From contig NZ_JMSQ01000007.1 in assembly GCF_000696575.1 (NCBI RefSeq), forward strand, positions 1 through 64,000: a stretch of DNA of 64,000 nt, read 5' to 3'. Each line of letters starts with the position of its first letter. The stretch's first letter is position 1. Shown here piece by piece: positions 3,499-25,294 of the stretch. The notes beneath the pieces were generated by a model, which did not search any database, was not told where the DNA came from, and worked only from the letters and a program-made list of their open reading frames with translations. The DNA comes from Siccibacter colletis (lineage in GTDB: Bacteria > Pseudomonadota > Gammaproteobacteria > Enterobacterales > Enterobacteriaceae). The translations under genes were made by a program, and so were the position numbers.

Positions 3499-4806
3499 AT
3501 GACACTTTCACGTACCCAACAAATCGAACAGCTGGAACATGAATGGAAGCAGGCGCGCTGGCAGGGGATTGTTCGTCCCTACAGCGCAGAAGAGGTGATA
3601 AAGCTGCGCGGCTCGGTCAATCCGGCCTGCACTCTGGCCCAGCGTGGCGCGGAGAAACTCTGGCGCTTGCTGAACGGCGAGTCGAAGAAGGGCTATATCA
3701 ATAGCCTGGGCGCGCTCACCGGCGGGCAGGCGCTGCAGCAGGCGAAGGCGGGGATTGAAGCCATCTATCTCTCCGGCTGGCAGGTGGCCGCAGACGCTAA
3801 CCTCGCCGCCAGCATGTATCCGGATCAGTCGCTCTATCCGGCGAACTCAGTGCCTGCGGTGGTCGATCGGATCAACAACACTTTCCGACGGGCGGATCAG
3901 ATCCAGTGGGCGTCCGGGATCGAGCCGGGCGATCGGGGCTATACCGATTATTTTCTGCCGATCGTCGCCGATGCCGAAGCCGGATTCGGCGGTGTGCTTA
4001 ACGCGTTCGAGCTGATGAAATCGATGATCGAAGCCGGGGCGGCGGGGGTCCACTTTGAGGATCAGCTGGCCTCGGTGAAAAAGTGCGGCCATATGGGCGG
4101 CAAAGTGCTGGTGCCTACCCAGGAAGCGATCCAGAAGCTGGTCGCCGCCCGGCTGGCAGCCGACGTGATGGGCGTACCGACGCTGCTGATTGCCCGCACC
4201 GACGCCGATGCTGCGGATCTCATTACTTCCGATTGCGACGACTACGACCGCGAATTTATTGTCGGCGAGCGTACCTCTGAAGGCTTCTATCGTACTCATG
4301 CCGGCATTGAGCAGGCCATCAGCCGCGGACTGGCTTACGCGCCCTATGCCGACCTGGTGTGGTGCGAAACTTCCACCCCGGACCTCGACCAGGCGCGCCG
4401 TTTTGCCGAGGCTATTCATGCCCGCTTCCCCGGTAAACTGCTGGCCTACAACTGTTCGCCGTCGTTCAACTGGAAGAAAAAGCTCGACGACGACACCATC
4501 GCGCGTTTCCAGGATGCGCTGTCGGCGATGGGTTACAAGTACCAGTTCATTACCCTCGCCGGTATTCACAGCATGTGGTTCAACATGTTCGACCTGGCGC
4601 ACGCCTACGCGCAGGGCGAGGGCATGAAGCACTATGTGGAGAAAGTGCAGCAGCCTGAATTTGCCGCCGGGAAGGATGGCTACACCTTCGTGTCGCACCA
4701 GCAGGAGGTGGGGACGGGCTACTTTGACCATGTCACCACCATCATTCAGGGCGGCGCATCGTCGGTGACTGCGCTCACCGGTTCGACCGAAGAGCAGCAG
4801 TTCTAG
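3499..4806 (+). CDS. aceA: isocitrate lyase
   Basis: 435 aa, collinear with E. coli AceA (…[17 protein letters not shown]…). Confidence 0.97.
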
Positions 4807-15610: not shown

Positions 15611-15917
15611 ATCCAAAAAGCTCGCTGTGAGTACCAATATCGATAAAGGTCAGCAGGTTTTGCGCCGGACTGAAGCGGTAAACCAGCAGGAAATCCCCGC
15701 CGATATGCAGCTCTCTTGCGCCTTCCCACTGTTCGCCCTTCAGTTGATGATCGCAGTAGCTGGCTGGCAAAACACTGCCGTGGAAAAGGCGCGTCATTAC
15801 CTCGACCAGGGCAGGCATGTCATGACGCCCCGCTTTGTTATAACGCTCCCAGGATTTTGCAAAGGTACGCGTGTAGTCCACGCGTCGAGGCAAGCTACTT
15901 TTCTTGTTTCTCATCAT
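15609..15917 (-). CDS. type II toxin, YafQ/RelE family (mRNA interferase)
   Basis: C-terminal half aligns with E. coli YafQ (…DHQLKGEQWEGARELHIGGDFLLVYRF…IDIGTHSELFG versus …DHPLQGSWKGYRDAHVEPDWILIYKL…ERTGTHAALFG). Confidence 0.8.
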   Translation of the reverse strand: MMRNKKSSLPRRVDYTRTFAKSWERYNKAGRHDMPALVEVMTRLFHGSVLPASYCDHQLKGEQWEGARELHIGGDFLLVYRFSPAQNLLTFIDIGTHSELFG

Positions 15918-16173
15918 GGCTCAGTTCCTTGAGCATGTCGTCTGACGACGTGAAGCGGTGGCTGGCATGTGCTTCAATGTCGCGTGCTTCCTGCAGCGCG
16001 GCTTGCATTTTGATCGAGGGGCGTTTGACTTCGAACGGTATGCCCTGATGGCTCACGACCTGTTCCAGAAACAGGCGTATTGCGCTACTGACGGTGAGGC
16101 CACAGTCGCGCAGGATATGCGTAGCTTCGTTTTTCAGCTCTTCGGAAATACGCATTTTGATGCTGGATTGCAT
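15895..16173 (-). CDS. type II antitoxin, DinJ/RelB family
   Basis: MQSSIKMRISEELKNEATHILRDCGLTVSSAIRLFLEQVV… aligns with DinJ (MAANAFVRARIDEDLKNQAADVLAGMGLTISDLVRITLTKV…); the start is chosen at the Met matching DinJ and the track ORF extends to 16230; the 3' end overlaps the toxin's 5' end by about 20 nt. Confidence 0.75.
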   Translation of the reverse strand: MQSSIKMRISEELKNEATHILRDCGLTVSSAIRLFLEQVVSHQGIPFEVKRPSIKMQAALQEARDIEAHASHRFTSSDDMLKELSHDEKQEK

Positions 16174-16318
16174 AACATCACCTCGCTTTTTTTGTGGGTA
16201 CATTGTGCTCACGATGTGGTTATTTTTCAAGCGGTGATTTCTCGGGTCGATAAACTTACGCGTGCACGGTTTTTATCGTCCCGCAGGCAGGTTATATTTC
16301 GCCTTTACAGGAGAAACT

Positions 16319-18611: not shown

Positions 18612-18644
18612 CGGGAATGAAAAAGGCCGGGTGAACGCCCGGCC
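18612..18644 (-). terminator. rtcR intrinsic terminator
   Basis: ggccgggt-gaac-gcccggcc; on the minus strand it is followed by tttttcatt. Confidence 0.6.
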
Positions 18645-18686: not shown

Positions 18687-20294
18687 TTATGATGAAATGC
18701 CTTCATCGTTGGCGCGGATCTGCTCCCAGCTGAGATCGAAGCGGGCAAGGTATTTCCGCAGCCGATCGGCATCGTTAGGGTTCTGCTTCTTCTGACGCGA
18801 TACCGCAAACAGGGTGCGACCCGCTTCCGACAGCGAGGCGCTGCGGCGACACACCTCAATTACCGTTTCCAGCTGGCGCTGGTCAAAAAGATCGATCTCG
18901 TCCTGCACCGGCAGCGACGCCGGAGCGGGATTGCTGCTGCGCCAGTTCTGCCGCAGGCGTGCCGTCTCCTCCTCCACCAGACCCAGCGTAATGCGCCCCT
19001 GCTCGGCAAGCGTTGCCATACGCGCGACCGAGGCGCTCAGCTCGCGAAAGTTGCCGCGCCAGGCTGCCTGAGGCGAGCAGGCGAAGGCCAGATACGCTGC
19101 CTTCGCCTCTTTATCGAAGCGTACCTGCGTCTGTTGCTGCCCGGCAAAGCGCTGCAGCTCATATTCCACGTTGGGGGGAATGTCCTCCCGGCGCTGCGCG
19201 AGGCCTGGCAGGGCAAAGGTCCACATGTTGATGCGGGCATAGAGATCTTCACGAAAACGGCCCTCCGCTACCCACTGCGGCATATCCCGGTGGGTGCCGG
19301 CGATCAGCTGGAAGTCGCTGCGCACCTCGTTATCCGCGCCGAACGGCAGGAAGGTTTTCTCTTCGATGGCCTTGAGCAGCATCGCCTGTTCGTCGAGGCC
19401 CAGCTCTGCAATCTCATCAAGAAATAACACGCCACCGTCCGCTTCGCGCAGCAGACCCGCCCGCGCCTGCAACGCGCCGGTAAACGCACCTTTGACATGG
19501 CCGAACAGGGTCGACATGGCGTTATCCCCACGCAGCGTCGCGCAGTTCACTGCCACCAGCCGGCCCTGTACTTGATGGCGCGACTGCCGCAGCTGGAAGA
19601 TGCGCTGCGCCAGGAACGATTTTCCGGCCCCGGTCGGCCCGGTAAGCAGGATCGGGGCGGTTGAACGCAGGGCCACGCGTTCGATCTGGTCAATCAGACG
19701 GTTAAAGGTGGCATTGCGGGTGTCGATGCCGGCCTTGAGGAAAGAGACCGACTGCTGCTGTTCGCGCTGGAAGCGGCTGGTGAGCGTGGTGTAGCGGCTC
19801 AGATCGAGATCGATAACCGAGTAGGTTCCGGCTGCGGTCAGGGCGGCATCGGTGACATCGCGATGCGCCGGGCTGGTCTGCACCAGGCCCGCGGGCAGGT
19901 AGCGGGCTTCGGTCAGCAGGAACCAGCAGATCTGCGCGACGTGGGTGCCGGTAGTGATGTGGACCAGATACTCCTCGCGTTCGGTATCGAACGGGTAGCG
20001 GGTGGCAAAGTCGAGCAGCGCGGCGTACACCTCCTCGAAATCCCAGGGATCGTTGAGCGTCACGGTGTGCGGGCGAACCTCGGTATGCGGCGAGGCGAGG
20101 GCGATATCTTCCACCACCCGCTGCGCCAGCACGGCGTCACGCGGCTGGCACAGCAGCTCAAACCGATCCACAGGCAGATCGGGATGCAGGCACAGCCCGA
20201 CCGTCGGTCGCCACTTGTTCCAGCGGTTGGCGCGTTTTCCGCGCTTGTCCAGCACGGTACCCAGCATGCCAATCACCACCCGACGCTTTTTCAT
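18687..20294 (-). CDS. rtcR: sigma54-dependent RNA-repair operon activator RtcR (CARF-like N-terminal domain plus AAA+ domain)
   Basis: 535 aa, collinear with E. coli RtcR (…WRPT…NPWDFEEVYA…HITTGTHVAQICWFLL…GPTGAGKSF…GAFTGA…RYLARFDL.WE…). Confidence 0.93.
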   Translation of the reverse strand: MKKRRVVIGMLGTVLDKRGKRANRWNKWRPTVGLCLHPDLPVDRFELLCQPRDAVLAQRVVEDIALASPHTEVRPHTVTLNDPWDFEEVYAALLDFATRYPFDTEREEYLVHITTGTHVAQICWFLLTEARYLPAGLVQTSPAHRDVTDAALTAAGTYSVIDLDLSRYTTLTSRFQREQQQSVSFLKAGIDTRNATFNRLIDQIERVALRSTAPILLTGPTGAGKSFLAQRIFQLRQSRHQVQGRLVAVNCATLRGDNAMSTLFGHVKGAFTGALQARAGLLREADGGVLFLDEIAELGLDEQAMLLKAIEEKTFLPFGADNEVRSDFQLIAGTHRDMPQWVAEGRFREDLYARINMWTFALPGLAQRREDIPPNVEYELQRFAGQQQTQVRFDKEAKAAYLAFACSPQAAWRGNFRELSASVARMATLAEQGRITLGLVEEETARLRQNWRSSNPAPASLPVQDEIDLFDQRQLETVIEVCRRSASLSEAGRTLFAVSRQKKQNPNDADRLRKYLARFDLSWEQIRANDEGISS

Positions 20295-20430
20295 TGATTA
20301 TCCTTAAAGATAAAAATCGATACCAAAAGATAAATAGTAGCGCTTTCCTGCCCGGGGGTCCTGAAAAGACAGAAAAATTAAATTGATAAATTTCATATGG
20401 TTATGAATTTATTTTCGCCTTAAATGAAAC

Positions 20431-20446
20431 TGGCACGCTTCTGGCA
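20431..20446 (+). promoter_or_regulatory. sigma54 (-24/-12) promoter TGGCACGCTTCTGGCA driving the rtcB operon
   Basis: GG and GC elements at the canonical spacing, 137 nt from the divergent rtcR start; an AT-rich spacer (20300-20430) is consistent with an enhancer/IHF region. Confidence 0.7.
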
Positions 20447-20456
20447 AAGATAACCT

Positions 20457-20600
20457 CGTCAGCACGCTGGAATCGCAGGGAATCATCATCCCGCCGGCGC
20501 ACCGGGAACAGTAACAGGTTATCCACGGGGCGTTCCGCCAGCAGCGAGACACCGGCAAAACATCGGTTTATCAGGTTCGAATCCTGAATTTGCATTCTCC
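20457..20600 (+). ncRNA. candidate structured leader / tRNA-like (YrlA-type) RNA element
   Basis: perfect T-arm mimic tcagg-TTCGAAT-cctga at 20571-20587 followed by the 7-nt strand atttgca; lies in the 310-nt untranslated stretch between the sigma54 promoter and the first CDS; boundaries are approximate. Confidence 0.35.
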
Positions 20601-20768
20601 TCCAGAGAACTTAAACAGCAGTACCCGGCGGTTGGGTTGGTAACGACCGCCCAGAGCTGACGCCGGTAACGGCGCCGGGCGGCAGGCAGAAAAGACCAGA
20701 GCAGCGGTCACTTCCCCCTCCCGCTTCGCGCCTGCATTCGCGCCAGCCACAACATTAAGGAAAGCAAA

Positions 20769-21914
20769 ATGAATAACACATTGACGATTCGTAAAGGCCA
20801 GCTGGGTTTACTGGCAAAACAGGGCGACTTTTATCAGATTCTGGAAGCGGGCGAGCATCGCCTGCCGTGGTTTAACAAACCGGACGTGGTGGTGATCGAC
20901 GTAAACAGCGGCGACGTAGCCCCCGAACTGGCTGACTACCTGCGCCGGTTTCAGCCTGCATGGGTAGAGAAATACTGCCTGGTGGTCGATACCGCCGATA
21001 ACGAAACGGCGGCGATCTGGCGCGACAACGTGCTGGTGGAGATCGTCCCTCCTGGCGCACGGCGTCTGTTCTGGCGCGACGGCGACAGCCTGCGGGCCGT
21101 GCATCTGGATACCCGTGAGGTGCAGGTGCCGGCAGAGATCGTGACTGCCGTTCTGCAACCGCGTGGCCGCGATGCGGCGGTGAAGGGGCGCGAGGCGATC
21201 CTCATCGTTAACGTACCGGCGTGGCACGTTGGGGTGCTGAAAATTGATGGCGTCACGCAGCCGCTGCTGTCGCCGGGGTTAAGCGCGTACTGGAAAATCA
21301 ATCATCTGGTGGAAGCGGAAGCGGTGGATACCCGCCTGCAGGCGCTGGAGGTTTCCGGTCAGGAGATCCTGACTAAAGATAAGGTGAATCTGCGTATTAA
21401 CCTCGGTGCCAACTGGCGCTACGGCGACGTGTTACAGGCATACAGCCAGCTGGCTAAGCCGCTTGAGCACCTCTATCGCGAGCTGCAGTTTGCCCTGCGT
21501 GAAGCGGTGGGTACCCGCACGCTGGATGAGCTGCTGGAAAATAAGCAGGTTATCGACGAGGTGGTGAGCGCCCAGGTAGTAACGCGCATGGCACCGTTTG
21601 GCATTGAGATTGCCTCCATTGGGGTGAAGGATATTGTGCTGCCGGGCGAGATGAAAACCATCCTCTCGCGGCTGGTTGAGGCGGAGAAACTGGCCCAGGC
21701 TAACGTTATTCGCCGACGTGAAGAGACCGCTGCGACCCGCTCGCTGCTGAACACGGCAAAAGTGATGGAGAACAACCCGGTGGCGTTGCGTCTTAAGGAG
21801 ATGGAAACCCTGGAGCGCGTTGCGGAGCGCATCGATAAAATTTCGGTCTACGGCGGCCTGGACCAGGTTCTGCACGGCCTCGTGAACATTAAAGGAAACA
21901 TCCATGCAGCATAA
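20769..21914 (+). CDS. SPFH/band-7 (slipin-family) domain protein without an N-terminal TM anchor
   Basis: 381 aa; stomatin/prohibitin-like core (…KDKVNLRINLGANWRY…IEIASIGVKDIVLPGEMKTILSRLVEAEKLAQANVIRRREETAATRSL…); RBS aagga; its 3' end overlaps rtcB by 11 nt. Confidence 0.85.
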   Translation: MNNTLTIRKGQLGLLAKQGDFYQILEAGEHRLPWFNKPDVVVIDVNSGDVAPELADYLRRFQPAWVEKYCLVVDTADNETAAIWRDNVLVEIVPPGARRLFWRDGDSLRAVHLDTREVQVPAEIVTAVLQPRGRDAAVKGREAILIVNVPAWHVGVLKIDGVTQPLLSPGLSAYWKINHLVEAEAVDTRLQALEVSGQEILTKDKVNLRINLGANWRYGDVLQAYSQLAKPLEHLYRELQFALREAVGTRTLDELLENKQVIDEVVSAQVVTRMAPFGIEIASIGVKDIVLPGEMKTILSRLVEAEKLAQANVIRRREETAATRSLLNTAKVMENNPVALRLKEMETLERVAERIDKISVYGGLDQVLHGLVNIKGNIHAA

Positions 21915-23130
21915 CGACTATCAACTGATGGCGCGGGAGAACACCGCGCCGGTAAAAATGTGGACGCACGGCGTGCCGGTGGAGCCTGAAGCGCGCGAGC
22001 AGCTGCTGAAAACCGCACAGATGCCGTTTATTTTCAGACACCTGGCCGTGATGCCGGATGTGCACCTGGGGAAAGGCTCCACCATTGGCAGCGTGATCCC
22101 GACCAAAGGGGCGATTATTCCGGCGGCAGTGGGTGTGGATATCGGCTGCGGGATGATCGCGGTGCGCACCTCGCTGACGGCAGGGGATCTGCCGGATAAC
22201 CTGAGCGGGCTGCGCAGCGCCATTGAGCAGGCCGTGCCGCACGGGCGCACCGGCTCCCGCACCCAGCGCGATAAAGGCGCATGGGCGCGTCCGCCGCAGG
22301 AGGTGGATAGCCACTGGGCGCAGCTGGCTCCGCGCTTTAAGCGCCTGACGGATAAATACCCGCAGCTGCTGAAAACCAACAACTATCAGCATCTGGGTAC
22401 GCTGGGAACCGGGAATCACTTCATCGAGATCTGTCTCGACGAACAGCAGCGGGTATGGGTGATGCTGCACAGCGGCTCGCGCGGCGTGGGCAACGCCATC
22501 GGCACGCTGTTCATCAGCCTCGCGCAGAAGGACATGCAACGCCATATCGCAACGCTGCCCGACCGCGACCTCGCTTATTTTGCAGAGGGCAGCAAACACT
22601 ATGCGGATTACATCGAGGCAGTGGAGTGGGCGCAGGATTATGCCCGCCATAACCGGGAAGTGATGATGTCGCGCGTGCTGTCGGCGCTCTCCTCGGCGAT
22701 CGCGAAGCCGTTTATGACTCAGCAGGAAGCGGTTAACTGCCATCACAACTATGTGCAGAAAGAGCAGCACTTTGGTGAAGAGGTGCTGGTGACGCGTAAA
22801 GGCGCGGTGTCGGCGCAGAAAGGGCAGATGGGCATCATCCCCGGTTCGATGGGAGCGAAAAGTTTCATTGTGCGCGGGCTGGGCAATGAAGAGAGCTTCT
22901 GCTCCTGTAGCCACGGTGCCGGGCGCGCCATGAGCCGGACCGCTGCGAAAAAGCGCTATACCGTTGAGGATCAGATCCGCGCCACCGCGCACGTCGAGTG
23001 CCGTAAGGACAGCGAGGTGATCGACGAGATCCCGATGGCGTATAAAGATATTGATGCGGTGATGACCGCTCAGGCTTCGCTGGTGGAAGTGGTGCATACG
23101 CTGCGCCAGGTGGTCTGCGTAAAAGGATAA
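21904..23130 (+). CDS. rtcB: RNA-splicing ligase RtcB (3'-phosphate/5'-OH RNA ligase)
   Basis: 408 aa, roughly 80% identical to E. coli RtcB by eye (…PFIF.H.AVMPDVHLGKGSTIGSVIPTKGAIIPAAVGVDIGCGM…NCHHNYVQKEQHFGEE…CSHGAGR…). Confidence 0.97.
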   Translation: MQHNDYQLMARENTAPVKMWTHGVPVEPEAREQLLKTAQMPFIFRHLAVMPDVHLGKGSTIGSVIPTKGAIIPAAVGVDIGCGMIAVRTSLTAGDLPDNLSGLRSAIEQAVPHGRTGSRTQRDKGAWARPPQEVDSHWAQLAPRFKRLTDKYPQLLKTNNYQHLGTLGTGNHFIEICLDEQQRVWVMLHSGSRGVGNAIGTLFISLAQKDMQRHIATLPDRDLAYFAEGSKHYADYIEAVEWAQDYARHNREVMMSRVLSALSSAIAKPFMTQQEAVNCHHNYVQKEQHFGEEVLVTRKGAVSAQKGQMGIIPGSMGAKSFIVRGLGNEESFCSCSHGAGRAMSRTAAKKRYTVEDQIRATAHVECRKDSEVIDEIPMAYKDIDAVMTAQASLVEVVHTLRQVVCVKG

Positions 23131-23134
23131 GACA

Positions 23135-23920
23135 ATGAACAACAACGGAGTGAGCACTGCCATGCGCGAGCGCGTGCGGCAGGTGCTGAAAGAAGTGGAG
23201 CAGCGCGATAACGTGCGTGTGCTGTATGCCTGCGAGTCGGGCAGCCGGGGCTGGGGGTTCGCTTCCCCGGACAGCGATTATGATGTGCGTTTCCTCTACG
23301 TTCATCCCCCGGAATGGTATCTGCGCGTCGATCCGCCGCGGGATGTGATCGAGCTGCCCATTGATGAGGTGCTGGACGTGTCGGGCTGGGAGTGGCGCAA
23401 AGCGCTGGGTCTGCTCAAGCGCGCCAACCCGACGCTCATCGAGTGGCTGGATTCGCCGGTGGTCTATCAGCAGGATGACCACGCGCTGGCAGCGCTACGG
23501 GCGCAGGTGCCGGCGTGGTTCTCCGCCGAGCGGGCGCGCTGGCACTACTATTCAATGGCGCGCAAAAACTTTCACGGCTATTTGCAGGGCGACACAGTGC
23601 GGCTGAAAAAGTATTTCTACGTGCTGCGTCCGTTGCTGGCGGTGCGCTGGATCGAAGCCGGGAAGGGAATGCCGCCGATGCGCTTTGCGCAGCTGCTGGA
23701 GGGGACGGTGGAGGATGCGCTGCTGCGCCGGGAGATCGACGAGCTGCTCGCCATCAAACAGCGGGCCGGTGAAGCGGAATATGGGGCAATGCGCCCGCAC
23801 ATCCACGCGTTTATCCTGCAGGAACTGGCGCGAGGGGAAACGCCGCCCGAACTGCCCGGCAGCAATAACGCCGACCCGGCGCTGCTCGACGACTTACTGT
23901 TCCGCACGGTGATGGCCTGA
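23135..23920 (+). CDS. Pol-beta-superfamily nucleotidyltransferase (RtcB-associated, occupies the rtcA position)
   Basis: 261 aa; GS-x9-DxD motif (ESGSRGWGFASPDSDYDVRFLY); starts 4 nt after the rtcB stop with an agga RBS. Confidence 0.85.
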   Translation: MNNNGVSTAMRERVRQVLKEVEQRDNVRVLYACESGSRGWGFASPDSDYDVRFLYVHPPEWYLRVDPPRDVIELPIDEVLDVSGWEWRKALGLLKRANPTLIEWLDSPVVYQQDDHALAALRAQVPAWFSAERARWHYYSMARKNFHGYLQGDTVRLKKYFYVLRPLLAVRWIEAGKGMPPMRFAQLLEGTVEDALLRREIDELLAIKQRAGEAEYGAMRPHIHAFILQELARGETPPELPGSNNADPALLDDLLFRTVMA

Positions 23921-23941
23921 CGTTGTCAGGCCATTTTTTTA
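23914..23941. terminator. bidirectional intrinsic terminator between the NTase gene and lysC
   Basis: ggcctgac-gtt-gtcaggcc followed by attttttt; the NTase stop codon lies within the stem. Confidence 0.7.
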
Positions 23942-25294
23942 TCACTCGAACAGGTTGTGATGCAGCTTCTGCACCACCTGCTCGGCGTCATTGCCCGGCA
24001 CCAGGAAGCAGAGGTTGTAGCTGGAAGCACCGTAGCAAATCATGCGAATGTTGAACGGCTCCAGCACGCCAAACACCTCTTTGCCGACGCCGCAGGCTTT
24101 GGAAAGGTTGTTACCGATCAGTGCCACCAGCGCCAGATTCTCTTCCACCTCCACGCGGCACAGGGAAGAAAGCTCAGTCAGTAAGCCCTGGGTCAGCAAC
24201 GTATCGCCGGTGGAAGTAGAGCCGGTGGTATCGAGGGTCAGGGCAACGCTCACTTCCGACGTGGTAATCAGATCCACCGAGATATTGTGGCGCGCCAGGA
24301 TGCTGAACACTTCGGCGAGGAAACCGCGCGAGTGCAGCATGTTGAGACTGTGCAGGGTAAGCAGCGTCTGCTTGCGGCGCATCGCCAGCGCGCGGAACAG
24401 CGGCGGATTGGTGGTTTTGTTACACACCAGCGTGCCGCCCGCCGCCGGATCTTTGCTGGAACCGACGAACACCGGAATATCGCTGCGCACCGCAGGCAGC
24501 AGCGTTGCCGGATGCAGCACTTTCGCGCCGAAGGTCGCCATCTCGGCCGCTTCTTCAAAGGCGATCTCATCGATGCGCTTCGCTGCCGGCACTACGCGCG
24601 GGTCGGTGGTGTAGATGCCTGGTACGTCGGTCCAGATATCCACGCGCGCTGCCTTCAACGCTTCACCGAGCAGCGCTGCGGTGTAATCGCTGCCGCCACG
24701 ACCCAGCGTGGTGGTGCGGCCTTTACCTTCGCTGCCGATAAAACCCTGGGTGATCACCAGGCCTTCGCGAATGCGCGGCTGCAGCTGCTGAACGCAGAGC
24801 TCGGCCAGGGCGGTAACGTCCGGCTCGGCGCGGCCAAAGCGGTCGCTGGTGCGCATCACCTTGCGCACGTCAAACCACTGCGCCTCCACCGCGCGTTCGC
24901 GCAGCACTTCGACAAACAGCAGGGTGGACATCAGTTCGCCGTGGCTTACCAGCTCGTCAGTGAGGGCAGTGGAGGTCGCGAGCGACGCCGCTTCGGACAG
25001 GGTGGCGATGTTCTCCAGCAGACGATCGATTTCGTCGCGGATAACGGTCGGGTTTTGCAGGCGTTCGAGGATGTCATACTGGATTTTGCGGATCGCATCG
25101 AGCTTGACGAAGCGCTCGGTCGCTTCCGGACCTTCTGCCAGCGCCACCAGCAAATTAGTGATGCCCGCCGAGGCGGAAAGCACCACCAGACGCACGGTAT
25201 CATCGGAAAGGACCACGTCGGCGCTGCGGTTCATCGCGTCGAAATCGGCCACACTGGTGCCGCCAAATTTGGCGACAACAAAAGCATTTGTCAT
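23942..25294 (-). CDS. lysC: lysine-sensitive aspartokinase III
   Basis: 450 aa, collinear with E. coli LysC (…KFGGTSVADFDAMNRSAD.VLSD..VRLVVLSASAGITN…). Confidence 0.97.
   Translation of the reverse strand: MTNAFVVAKFGGTSVADFDAMNRSADVVLSDDTVRLVVLSASAGITNLLVALAEGPEATERFVKLDAIRKIQYDILERLQNPTVIRDEIDRLLENIATLSEAASLATSTALTDELVSHGELMSTLLFVEVLRERAVEAQWFDVRKVMRTSDRFGRAEPDVTALAELCVQQLQPRIREGLVITQGFIGSEGKGRTTTLGRGGSDYTAALLGEALKAARVDIWTDVPGIYTTDPRVVPAAKRIDEIAFEEAAEMATFGAKVLHPATLLPAVRSDIPVFVGSSKDPAAGGTLVCNKTTNPPLFRALAMRRKQTLLTLHSLNMLHSRGFLAEVFSILARHNISVDLITTSEVSVALTLDTTGSTSTGDTLLTQGLLTELSSLCRVEVEENLALVALIGNNLSKACGVGKEVFGVLEPFNIRMICYGASSYNLCFLVPGNDAEQVVQKLHHNLFE

Follow-up and report, generated by a model that had tools for sequence, protein, structure and literature searches.

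What kind of RNA-repair system is specified by a Siccibacter colletis locus in which the ligase gene rtcB follows a long leader and an SPFH/Band-7 gene and precedes a Pol-beta-fold nucleotidyltransferase gene? Analysis of the window, i.e. the whole 64-kb stretch of DNA studied, and of related loci indicated that it is probably (roughly 75%) a stress-inducible RNA-repair operon of the 'SPFH/Band-7 + tRNA-like RNA + RtcB + RlaP' class, under the control of a divergently encoded RtcR. What is new here is the nature of the long leader, a folded, conserved RNA in which no more than a piece of the tRNA-like RNA of related cassettes is left.

Organization of the locus

The cassette consists of rtcR on the minus strand and, divergently, a sigma54-type promoter, a leader of about 310 nt, the SPFH gene, rtcB, rlaP and a terminator. 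All ORFs, their coordinates being rechecked in the 64-kb window, were found where the original prediction had placed them.

18625-18644, minus strand: terminator-like hairpin and T-run downstream of rtcR (7 G-C pairs, TTTTTCATTC tail)
18687-20294, minus strand: rtcR, a CARF(RtcR)-AAA+(sigma54)-HTH enhancer-binding protein of 535 aa (NF038308, PF06956 and PF00158, PADLOC)
20306-20337, no strand assigned: AAAGATAAA as two direct repeats with a 20-nt spacing, adjoining the start of rtcR; a candidate upstream activating sequence for RtcR
20431-20446, plus strand: sigma54 -24/-12 promoter TGGCACGCTTCTGGCA, the sole match in the window, kept in relatives
20769-21914, plus strand: soluble SPFH/Band-7 protein of 381 aa, with two N-terminal beta-rich modules (1-~135), an SPFH core (~144-290) and a long helix (293-354)
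21904-23130, plus strand: rtcB, RNA 3'-phosphate ligase of 408 aa (PF01139, 442.8 bits; 73.5% identical to E. coli RtcB)
23135-23920, plus strand: rlaP, RNA-ligase-associated Pol-beta nucleotidyltransferase of 261 aa (PF10127 RlaP, 312.4 bits, full length)
23911-23935, plus strand: predicted intrinsic terminator overlapping the rlaP stop, common to the convergent lysC

The divergent rtcR/sigma54 layout was borne out. The 64 kb contain just one instance of TGGCAC-N5-TKGCW (0.11 expected), namely TGGCACGCTTCTGGCA, and it occurs at an equal relative position in 12/12 enterobacterial relatives and in the majority of the proteobacterial relatives. The columns of the AAAGATAAA repeats were invariant in a five-genus alignment (A1), and motifs resembling them (AAAGA..GATA) were present in the rtc intergenic regions of Pseudomonas and E. 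coli. Since 322 nt separate the end of the -12 element from the SPFH ATG, the leader measures about 310 nt, in agreement with the distance first given. The tight gene coupling was confirmed as well: SPFH and rtcB overlap by 11 nt (ATG at 21904; TAA at 21912-21914), rtcB and rlaP are separated by 4 nt (TAA at 23128-23130; ATG at 23135), and the starts of rtcB and rlaP are each preceded, about 8 nt upstream, by an AGGA Shine-Dalgarno sequence. The terminator at 23911-23935 was the only plus-strand one found 3' of the three genes. The sequence points to a single transcription unit, running from the promoter at 20431-20446 to this terminator, with three translationally coupled genes.

Proteins encoded by the cassette

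Profile searches assigned all four products, the SPFH protein and the nucleotidyltransferase included, to the families proposed for them. RtcR scored 840.8 bits on NCBIfam NF038308 (cutoff 650), matched Pfam RtcR (PF06956) and Sigma54_activat (PF00158), displayed the GAFTGA and Walker A motifs in its translation, and was typed by PADLOC as RtcR--CARF_AAA_HTH. The SPFH protein matched Band_7 (PF01145; 5e-26) over residues 148-319; its N-terminal beta modules gave no strong structural match. As no transmembrane helix was predicted in it (maximum Kyte-Doolittle 19-mer of 1.39), its earlier description as soluble is reasonable. In RtcB, the metal and GMP-His motifs were all present (DIGCGM, GNHF, HSGSRG, HHNY, and H337 in SHGAGR). 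Similarly, residues G36-S37, D46/D48/D50, D70 and D81 of RlaP were kept in 23 homologs.

The leader RNA

The existence and length of the leader had been predicted correctly; its treatment as a plain leader did not hold, the RNA being folded, covarying and related to the Band-7-associated tRNA region. Its elements are the following.

20466-20542, plus strand: 5' domain, three-way junction (P1 GCUGG 20466-70 / CCAGC 20538-42; P2 hairpin 20475-94; P3 20495-20537)
20555-20594, plus strand: tRNA 'top-half'-like minihelix, acceptor-like GCAAA (20555-59) / UUUGC (20589-93) around a T-arm
20595-20609, plus strand: small hairpin UUCUC-CUCCA-GAGAA after the minihelix, at the same position as the hairpin behind the tRNA-like unit in Pseudomonas and Burkholderia
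20616-20745, plus strand: 3' domain, with a conserved CAGCAGUACCCGGCGG motif (20616-31) and long-range helices 20658-20690 / 20713-20745

The fold of the 5' domain was obtained with RNAalifold on 12 enterobacterial leaders; 94.9% of the cells were paired, versus 38-50% when slid, and compensatory changes affected 17 of the 26 pairs, a result matched by 0/500 shuffles. The helices of the 3' domain gave comparable values (94.8% paired; compensatory changes in 12/21 pairs; 0/500 shuffles). These compensatory substitutions argue for selection on the leader fold. The T-arm of the minihelix is perfect (UCAGG-UUCGAAU-CCUGA, 20571-87), its loop being invariant and its stem covarying across 12 genera, and the acceptor-like helix covaries too (GCAAA/UUUGC, GGAAA/UUUUC, GCGAA/UUCGC, UGAUA/UAUCG). 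In addition, a CM of the 5' domain matched upstream of beta-proteobacterial tRNA-like genes (L011, E=5.7e-8; L019, 3e-6), and the CAGCAGUACCCGGCGG motif was common to Pseudomonas, Burkholderia and Accumulibacter leaders. Among 85 surveyed loci encoding an SPFH protein, 73 were non-enteric, and 50 of these 73 had a same-strand tRNA(-like) gene upstream of SPFH, at a median distance of 329 nt.

Judged from these alignments, the ~310-nt leader is a conserved structured RNA showing strong covariation and is homologous to leaders with cloverleaf 'Band-7-associated tRNAs' of other Proteobacteria, the cloverleaf having shrunk, in the Enterobacteriaceae, to a T-arm plus a short (5-bp) acceptor-like helix inside conserved flanking domains. 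A full cloverleaf tRNA in the leader was ruled out: ARAGORN called no tRNA in the window, minihelix included, and the Rfam tRNA model had no window match at E<=10. Neither did the YrlA model at this threshold, and no Y RNA (YrlA or YrlB) was found in the window. The YrlA model did give a weak hit (27.7 bits, E 8e-4), below gathering, in a Pseudomonas relative, on its tandem tRNA-like units.

Proposed mechanism and role of the leader

As work on E. coli and Salmonella suggests, damaged RNA, for example tRNA halves ending in a 2',3'-cyclic phosphate, would lift the inhibition of RtcR by its CARF domain (for RtcR ligands, see PMC7790460), and RtcR would oligomerise at the AAAGATAAA repeats and open the sigma54 promoter at 20431-20446. 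Going by the biochemistry of its family, RtcB would then seal 3'-P or 2',3'>P ends to 5'-OH ends. The soluble SPFH protein may oligomerise, in line with the tendency of SPFH proteins to form rings or cages and by analogy with Ro60/Y RNA; by the same analogy, the tRNA-like leader RNA could be its RNA partner or a scaffold for the repair enzymes. In Anabaena, slipin, rtcB, HNH and a tRNA array are co-derepressed in translation stress (PMC10272220). In Salmonella and E. coli, RtcR activation requires RtcA (and RtcB) (PMC7790460); as the cassette has no rtcA, its induction logic may differ from theirs, unless the genome has rtcA outside the window. Besides this need for RtcA, it counts against the RNA-repair operon reading that RlaP products end in 3'-OH and cannot be ligated by RtcB, that the RNA of the window has no cloverleaf and that deletion in 2026 of PaFlo8, the SPFH gene of the P. 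aeruginosa rtc locus, gave no phenotype in general assays.

Alternatively, the leader may be a purely cis-regulatory 5'-UTR, either an attenuator or a sensor of tRNA-modifying/processing enzymes or of RNA damage, and no RNA partner of the SPFH protein. Its location between promoter and first gene, the 12 nt between its 3' domain and the Shine-Dalgarno sequence, the loss of the cloverleaf in enterics, and a weak terminator-like call for the T-arm with AUUUGCAUUC behind it are consistent with such a role, although the T-run of this site is poor. However, the homologous region holds complete, processable-looking tRNA-like genes in most other lineages, the tRNA-like unit lies between rtcB and SPFH, outside any 5'-UTR, in seven loci (L074, L079-L084), and the RNA accompanies the SPFH gene even without rtcR or rtcB (38 loci), which makes an exclusively regulatory leader possible but rather doubtful. 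Cis-regulatory and trans-acting roles are not mutually exclusive.

Distribution of the cassette and loss of rtcB

The layout in which rtcR diverges from SPFH and rtcB, with or without RlaP and RtcA, was found in 27 of the 85 SPFH loci, in gamma- and beta-proteobacteria. Cronobacter, Franconibacter, Phytobacter and L087 have exactly the Siccibacter layout, likewise located at yjbD...lysC-pgi. A different reading is that of a mobile conflict island for phage defence or counter-defence, with SPFH-RlaP as the functional core and RNA ligation as an option. This would fit the patchy phyletic spread, the insertion into a variable region flanked by yjbD/SBF-transporter and lysC, the Gp49/HTH_37 toxin-antitoxin genes near the cassette in Citrobacter and Cronobacter, the zeta-toxin gene adjoining it in E. 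coli, and the loss of rtcB, with promoter, leader, SPFH and RlaP intact, in Citrobacter, Klebsiella, Superficieibacter, Lonsdalea, Mangrovibacter and some E. coli. Yet the island is unlikely to be of this kind: PADLOC called the RtcR CARF model alone and no defence-system protein, and the ORFs of the window comprised no integrase or other mobility gene flanking the cassette. Moreover, ligation need not be dispensable, because the E. coli strains with the SPFH-RlaP island have canonical rtcBA elsewhere.

RlaP and the absence of rtcA

As predicted, the locus contains neither rtcA nor rsr: the 64-kb window had no RtcA homolog (best tblastn E 0.034-0.29) and no Rsr. The original prediction went further, proposing that a template-independent nucleotidyltransferase in the rtcA slot replaces the RtcA cyclase as end-healing partner of RtcB, giving a distinct heal-and-seal chemistry. 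Besides the missing rtcA, the position of RlaP right after rtcB and six loci with rtcR, rtcB and RlaP lacking rtcA would favour this. However, RlaP and RtcA occur together with rtcR and rtcB in eight related loci (order RtcB-RlaP-RtcA or RtcB-RtcA-RlaP), four have rtcR, rtcB and RtcA without RlaP, and nine have neither RlaP nor RtcA, so that the two genes vary independently. RtcB needs no helper for 3'-P ends. The operons of P. fluorescens and P. aeruginosa also hold both genes, in the order RtcB-RlaP-RtcA, and the 3'-OH products of RlaP, the opposite of what RtcB needs, are not ligatable by RtcB, an incompatibility flagged by the RlaP authors (PMC12776372). The replacement is hence quite improbable. 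Because RlaP usually adjoins RtcA in the 85 SPFH loci, it is best regarded as an extra module that does not take the place of RtcA. The lack of rtcA, likewise missing in Cronobacter, Franconibacter, Phytobacter and some Burkholderia cassettes, is a lineage-specific absence and no pointer to different chemistry. Finally, a decaying, non-functional remnant, suggested by the disappearance of both rtcA and the tRNA cloverleaf and by the loss of rtcB in related genera, is very hard to reconcile with four full-length ORFs with intact catalytic motifs, a layout kept in at least four genera at 77-89% protein identity, and compensatory substitutions in the leader.

Comparison with known systems

Unlike the membrane SPFH assemblies (stomatin, HflK/C, prohibitin, QmcA), the Siccibacter SPFH protein is predicted to lack a membrane anchor; its similarity to the vault shell protein MVP is moderate, N-terminal homology and cage formation not being claimed. 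The Salmonella rsr-yrlBA-rtcBA operon shares RtcR control and, by analogy, an rtcB preceded by a scaffold protein that forms rings and by an ncRNA that mimics tRNA, but its scaffold is Ro60/TROVE instead of SPFH, and the Siccibacter window has neither a YrlA/YrlB match nor rtcA. E. coli rtcR-rtcBA resembles the cassette in RtcR (63% identity), RtcB (73.5%), divergent layout and sigma54 promoter (TGGCACG-N4-TTGCA), whereas it has rtcA, lacks SPFH and RlaP, and lies at glpR-malT instead of yjbD-lysC. Its rtcR-rtcB spacer is only 188 nt, with a leader of ~30 nt, and the long leader therefore belongs with the SPFH gene.

Burroughs and Aravind (NAR, 2016) reportedly predicted, by comparative genomics, RNA-repair operons of SPFH/Band-7, b7a-tRNA and RtcB, with or without RlaP. 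The operon type with SPFH/Band-7, tRNA-like RNA, RtcB and RlaP is credited to them in later sources (10.1101/312249; PMC12776372), and Band-7/b7a-tRNA is noted to adjoin RtcB (10.1101/312249). The cassette agrees with these operons in its four protein families, RtcR/sigma54 control and tRNA-related RNA directly upstream of SPFH, but differs in its RNA, a T-arm with a 5-bp acceptor-like helix instead of a cloverleaf, and in lacking rtcA. The earlier statement that no example had been characterised experimentally thus holds for the roles of the SPFH protein and the RNA, but not for the operon type, described in 2016, nor for PaFlo8, deleted in 2026, nor for Pseudomonas RlaP, whose activity and structure were reported in December 2025 (preprint, PMC12776372).

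The Pseudomonas loci, with features read from the survey and the P. aeruginosa order from PMC12776372, differ in that rtcA is present, that the tRNA-like RNA consists of two cloverleaf units in tandem whose 'anticodon' arms end in a tetraloop, and that SPFH and rtcB are often separated by a treble-clef zinc-finger ORF. Nevertheless, the Pseudomonas rtc locus (rtcR, PaFlo8 SPFH, rtcB, rlaP, rtcA) resembles the cassette in gene families and order, with RlaPs from these rtc operons being 56-62% and SPFH proteins 53-58% identical to those of Siccibacter (L010, L012, L026, L032), and the biochemistry of Pseudomonas RlaP is presumably transferable to the Siccibacter enzyme.

Organization of the cassette and identity of its genes

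The four long open reading frames (ORFs) of the cassette, located from a six-frame ORF list of the window, and their profile matches agreed in every detail with the ORF coordinates, the 11-nt overlap, the 4-nt gap, and the promoter of the original prediction.

Features of the cassette
18687-20294, minus strand: rtcR (RtcR PF06956, 278 bits; PF00158, 166.8 bits; NF038308, 840.8 bits)
20431-20446, plus strand: sigma54-type promoter TGGCACGCTTCTGGCA, 322 nt upstream of the SPFH gene and directed towards it
20769-21914, plus strand: SPFH/Band_7 gene (domain at residues 148-319, 5e-26)
21904-23130, plus strand: rtcB (PF01139, 442.8 bits)
23135-23920, plus strand: rlaP (PF10127, 312.4 bits, full length)
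23911-23935, plus strand: strong terminator hairpin with a T7 run, closing the transcription unit
23942-25294, minus strand: lysC, convergent to the cassette, with pgi next

The cassette is real and intact. The promoter TGGCACGCTTCTGGCA, which is conserved in relatives, was the sole sigma54-type match in 64 kb (0.11 expected). The SPFH gene and rtcB overlap by 11 nt, rlaP starts 4 nt after rtcB and so lies beside an RNA ligase gene, and an AGGA motif is found ~8 nt 5' of the start codons of both rtcB and rlaP. As read from the DNA and its comparison with relatives, these features show one terminator-bounded unit, predicted to be sigma54-promoted and translationally coupled, with a divergent CARF-type activator. 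The latter, RtcR, possesses RtcR/CARF and Sigma54_activat domains, the motifs GPTGAGKS and GAFTGA in its translation, and a full-length equivalog score above the NF038308 cutoff of 650 bits. Immediately next to the rtcR start codon lie two direct AAAGATAAA repeats (20306-20337) with a spacing of 20 nt. They are invariant in Siccibacter, Cronobacter, and Citrobacter, have similar counterparts in the rtc spacers of Pseudomonas and E. coli, and probably represent an RtcR binding site, a candidate UAS.

Profile searches matched each of the three downstream ORFs to the family proposed for it (SPFH/Band_7, RtcB, and RlaP). RtcB shares 73.5% identity with its E. coli counterpart and contains DIGCGM, GNHF, HSGSRG, HHNY, and SHGAGR (H337), the metal-binding and GMP-histidine motifs being kept. 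RlaP covers positions 1-248 of the 249 of PF10127, named 'RlaP - RNA repair pathway DNA polymerase beta family' in Pfam, and is predicted to be an active nucleotidyltransferase; its residues G36, S37, D46, D48 (D50), D70, and D81 are conserved at 95% or more in 23 homologs. A sequence search of the PDB with this protein returned no match. The SPFH protein has the alpha/beta core of the SPFH/Band-7 superfamily followed by a coiled-coil helix, and a database protein of Siccibacter colletis is 100% identical to it. Despite its NCBI name, it does not belong to the slipin/stomatin-type membrane proteins: it contains no hydrophobic segment (KD19 maximum 1.39), the model of its N-terminus consists of beta modules, its gene has no NfeD gene as a neighbour, and it scores far under the cutoffs of the HflK/HflC equivalogs. 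The bacterial MVP homologs of a 2019 preprint are different proteins.

As originally predicted, the cassette contains neither rtcA nor rsr. The operon is not a canonical rtcBA operon, the cassette and the 64-kb window lacking an RTC-family ORF, and hence any RtcA homolog; nor is it of the Ro60/Y-RNA type, a TROVE ORF and a YrlA match being absent. PADLOC retrieved only RtcR from the window and no other defence-system match.

Further features were noted around the cassette. A lysine riboswitch (RF00168; 25404-25597, minus strand; 90.6 bits) lies upstream of lysC, and the window opens with a 5S rRNA gene (RF00001; 40-155, plus strand; 91.2 bits), so that its first part is the tail of an rrn operon. 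The ORF at 15895-16230 (minus strand) is one that we take, by eye, to be DinJ/RelB-like. Pairs of Gp49 (HigB-like) and HTH_37 genes flank the islands of Citrobacter and Cronobacter (L001 3259-3950; L003 1760-2430; L numbers denote genomic loci of relatives used for comparison). Such toxin-antitoxin-like flanking genes fit a variable, horizontally exchanged region.

Distribution of RlaP, RtcA, and RtcB among related loci

The SPFH family is large (538 clusters at 50% identity with E<1e-30). Eighty loci were fetched through an alignment of 59 diverse members and another eight by exact protein look-up or BLAST, and RtcR, RtcB, RlaP, and RtcA were mapped onto them. The divergent arrangement of rtcR and SPFH-rtcB turned out to be common in gamma- and beta-proteobacteria. 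The window layout is matched exactly in Cronobacter, Franconibacter, Phytobacter, and locus L087, and at an identical chromosomal site (SBF transporter/yjbD ... lysC-pgi). In this respect the comparison of neighbourhoods bore out the expected architecture, but not the central idea attached to it, namely that the nucleotidyltransferase stands in for RtcA. Of the loci with both RtcR and RtcB, eight also had RlaP and RtcA, six (the window included) had RlaP without RtcA, four had RtcA without RlaP, and nine had neither, indicating that RlaP and RtcA vary independently. They are frequently found together, RtcB being followed by RlaP and then RtcA or by RtcA and then RlaP. Judged by gene content, RlaP is neither a positional nor a functional replacement of RtcA.

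In Citrobacter, Klebsiella, Superficieibacter, Lonsdalea, and Mangrovibacter, rtcR is divergent from an SPFH-RlaP pair from which rtcB is cleanly missing. These loci (~3900-7950 in L001 and L002 of Citrobacter, L005, L006 and L007 of Klebsiella, L008, and L044) have kept the promoter and the leader, and their SPFH and RlaP genes are 5-50 nt apart. The leader, SPFH, and RlaP thus stay together as a unit with no ligase in cis. Some E. coli strains carry only the promoter, leader, SPFH, and RlaP at yjbD-lysC, with an adjoining zeta-toxin gene, and a canonical rtcR-rtcBA elsewhere. This is the case for E. coli LHM10-1 (L088 3526-6940), in which the sigma54 promoter (3739-3753) is followed by the T-loop leader, SPFH, RlaP, and a zeta-toxin family gene. 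As rtcR is absent from this locus and a canonical rtcR-rtcBA is present in the same genome, control of the island in trans by the native RtcR is suggested.

Other loci differ in additional genes. Pseudomonas-type operons (L012 7200-7562; also L010, L018, and L020) contain an ORF for a treble-clef zinc finger of ~120-130 amino acids (PF13451) in the SPFH-rtcB interval; the Comamonadaceae loci L030, L033, and L034 contain instead an ORF of ~250-280 amino acids with no Pfam match.

A structured leader RNA related to tRNA-like regions

The leader between the promoter and the SPFH gene contains the following elements.

Elements of the leader RNA
20571-20587, plus strand: perfect tRNA T-arm, UCAGG-UUCGAAU-CCUGA
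20555-59/20589-93, plus strand: acceptor-like 5-bp helix GCAAA/UUUGC, closing the T-arm
20658-20690/20713-20745, plus strand: long-range helices of the 3' half, with covariation support

Taken singly, the sequence is unremarkable: its fold is no better than that of shuffles (z = -1.06), the T-loop 11-mer by itself is statistically unremarkable in 64 kb, ARAGORN retrieved no tRNA gene from the window, and Rfam gave no tRNA or YrlA match at E<=10 for 20200-20900. The structure became visible through comparative analysis, for which 12 enterobacterial leaders were aligned and their 5' and 3' halves considered separately. The 5' half forms a three-way junction plus the T-arm, with 94.9% of cells paired (38-50% in slid controls) and compensatory changes in 17 of 26 pairs, values reached by none of 500 shuffles. 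Similarly, the 3' half displays 94.8% pairing and 12 compensatory pairs out of 21 (0/500 shuffles). The acceptor-like helix covaries between genera (GCAAA/UUUGC, GGAAA/UUUUC, GCGAA/UUCGC, UGAUA/UAUCG) and is indistinct in the Citrobacter/Klebsiella/E. coli group. By this alignment, the leader is shown to be a covarying RNA. Two other pairings were discarded: an anticodon-like arm ACCGG/UCGGU (20551-67), which Cronobacter does not conserve, gave way to the covarying acceptor-like helix, and a local GNRA hairpin (20661-74) is not conserved in Franconibacter, covariation favouring the long-range helices.

In non-enterobacterial relatives, the corresponding region contains tRNA genes or tRNA-like genes. 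ARAGORN found one or two of these on the same strand upstream of the SPFH start in 50 of the 73 loci, at a median distance of 329 nt and with abnormal anticodon loops in eleven; it made no such call in any of the 11 enterobacterial loci. In thirteen loci, the region upstream of SPFH contains an array of 5-25 tRNA genes. Such arrays, co-oriented with SPFH and directly 5' of it, were seen in rtcR-less loci, with an HNH endonuclease ORF (Pfam HNH_5) often separating the array from the last tRNA-like unit.

Loci with tRNA arrays
1524-5661 of L057
1527-5580 of L035
51-4302 of L073
also L017, L025, L027, L028, L042, L045, L048, L050, and L068

In Pseudomonas and Burkholderia, the 5' part comprises the sigma54 promoter, a conserved domain (...CCCGCCGGUGC...GCAUGCCGCC), and two tRNA-like units in tandem, each with a tetraloop capping its 'anticodon' arm; in the 3' part, a hairpin follows and then a second conserved domain beginning GCAGUACCCGCCGG. 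The window leader has both flanking domains, with the T-arm and its 5-bp acceptor-like helix alone between them. Rfam calls one Pseudomonas-type unit a tRNA (43 bits). The Rfam YrlA model weakly matches L012 5641-5716 (27.7 bits, E 8e-4, below gathering), across the T-arm of the first unit and the D-arm of the second, so the tandem units of this Pseudomonas-type locus could adopt a permuted YrlA-like fold.

A covariance model built solely from the 5' halves of the enterobacterial leaders matched beta-proteobacterial loci at full length and where a leader would be expected, on the 5' side of the tRNA-like genes (L011, E=5.7e-8; L019, 3e-6; also L014, L020, L013, and L016), many of its weaker matches being mere T-arms of ordinary tRNAs. 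These full-length matches indicate that the enterobacterial and beta-proteobacterial leaders are homologous. When the window was searched with nhmmer profiles of non-enteric leaders, which use sequence alone, there was no match; the homology emerged only with the covariance model, run in the reverse direction. The canonical rtcR-rtcB spacer of E. coli measures just 188 nt and its leader ~30 nt, so the structured RNA is tied to the SPFH gene rather than being a general trait of Rtc operons. Band-7-associated tRNAs are defined by an adjacent cloverleaf on the same strand; in the window, only the T-arm and the acceptor-like helix remain. We read the enterobacterial leader as a reduced Band-7-associated tRNA region, in which the cloverleaf would have been lost and the tRNA 'top-half' minihelix kept.

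Possible function and comparison with known systems

The cassette itself adds little, since its operon class has been described already. The combination had been thought uncharacterised; yet Burroughs and Aravind had already listed its parts and linked them to one another in 2016, according to 10.1101/312249 and PMC12776372, and a Pseudomonas RlaP has been studied biochemically. The RlaP encoded in the P. fluorescens and P. aeruginosa rtc operons extends RNA 3'-OH ends by one or two NMPs, with a preference for mimics of broken tRNA and a requirement for Mn2+; a structure at 2.1 A was also reported (PMC12776372). In P. aeruginosa, the SPFH gene PaFlo8 is 'embedded within the rtc locus', and its deletion gave no phenotype in general assays. 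Of modest novelty are the enterobacterial leader as a conserved structured RNA keeping just the tRNA minihelix, and the natural rtcB-less and rtcA-less variants in tractable hosts.

Based on knowledge of the families, RtcR would be activated by RNA-damage signals, RtcB would seal 3'-P/>P to 5'-OH ends, and RlaP would refill one or two nucleotides on 3'-OH ends. Two loose ends are real. The 3'-OH products of RlaP are not substrates of RtcB, a 3'-phosphate ligase (PMC12776372). Further, the signal for RtcR in Salmonella consists of 5' tRNA halves with a 2',3'-cyclic phosphate end, and RtcA is needed for RtcR activation in Salmonella (PMC7790460) and in E. coli, yet it is absent from the window operon, which raises the question of how RtcR is switched on without an operon rtcA.

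A joint reading, to which we assign a probability of only about 0.2, is that the Band-7-associated tRNA of enterobacteria has been pared to an acceptor/T-arm minihelix within a covarying leader of ~310 nt. In place of a free tRNA-like molecule, this RNA would serve an SPFH protein, soluble and forming rings or cages, as its dedicated partner, or as damage sensor or decoy. The trio of SPFH protein, RNA, and RlaP would then be the functional core, able to function with no ligase encoded in cis, the situation in Citrobacter, Klebsiella, and some E. coli. If true, the trio would represent a Ro/vault-like RNP module of bacteria that is open to genetic work in enterics and may be induced by RtcR in the absence of RtcA. 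The enterobacterial versions offer compact natural variants in organisms amenable to genetics (Cronobacter, Citrobacter, Klebsiella, and some E. coli), having a minihelix in place of the cloverleaf, rtcB present or absent, and no rtcA.

By analogy, the SPFH protein may be an oligomeric scaffold that uses tRNA-like RNA as Ro60 uses Y RNA. A second parallel is found in Anabaena, in which a 26-tRNA array is under joint control of the repressor TrcR with rtcB and the genes for a slipin and an HNH endonuclease (PMC10272220). This stress-induced regulon resembles the surveyed loci with tRNA arrays, HNH endonuclease ORFs, and SPFH genes, whose neighbourhoods it mirrors, and is independent evidence for assigning these parts to a single translation-stress response.
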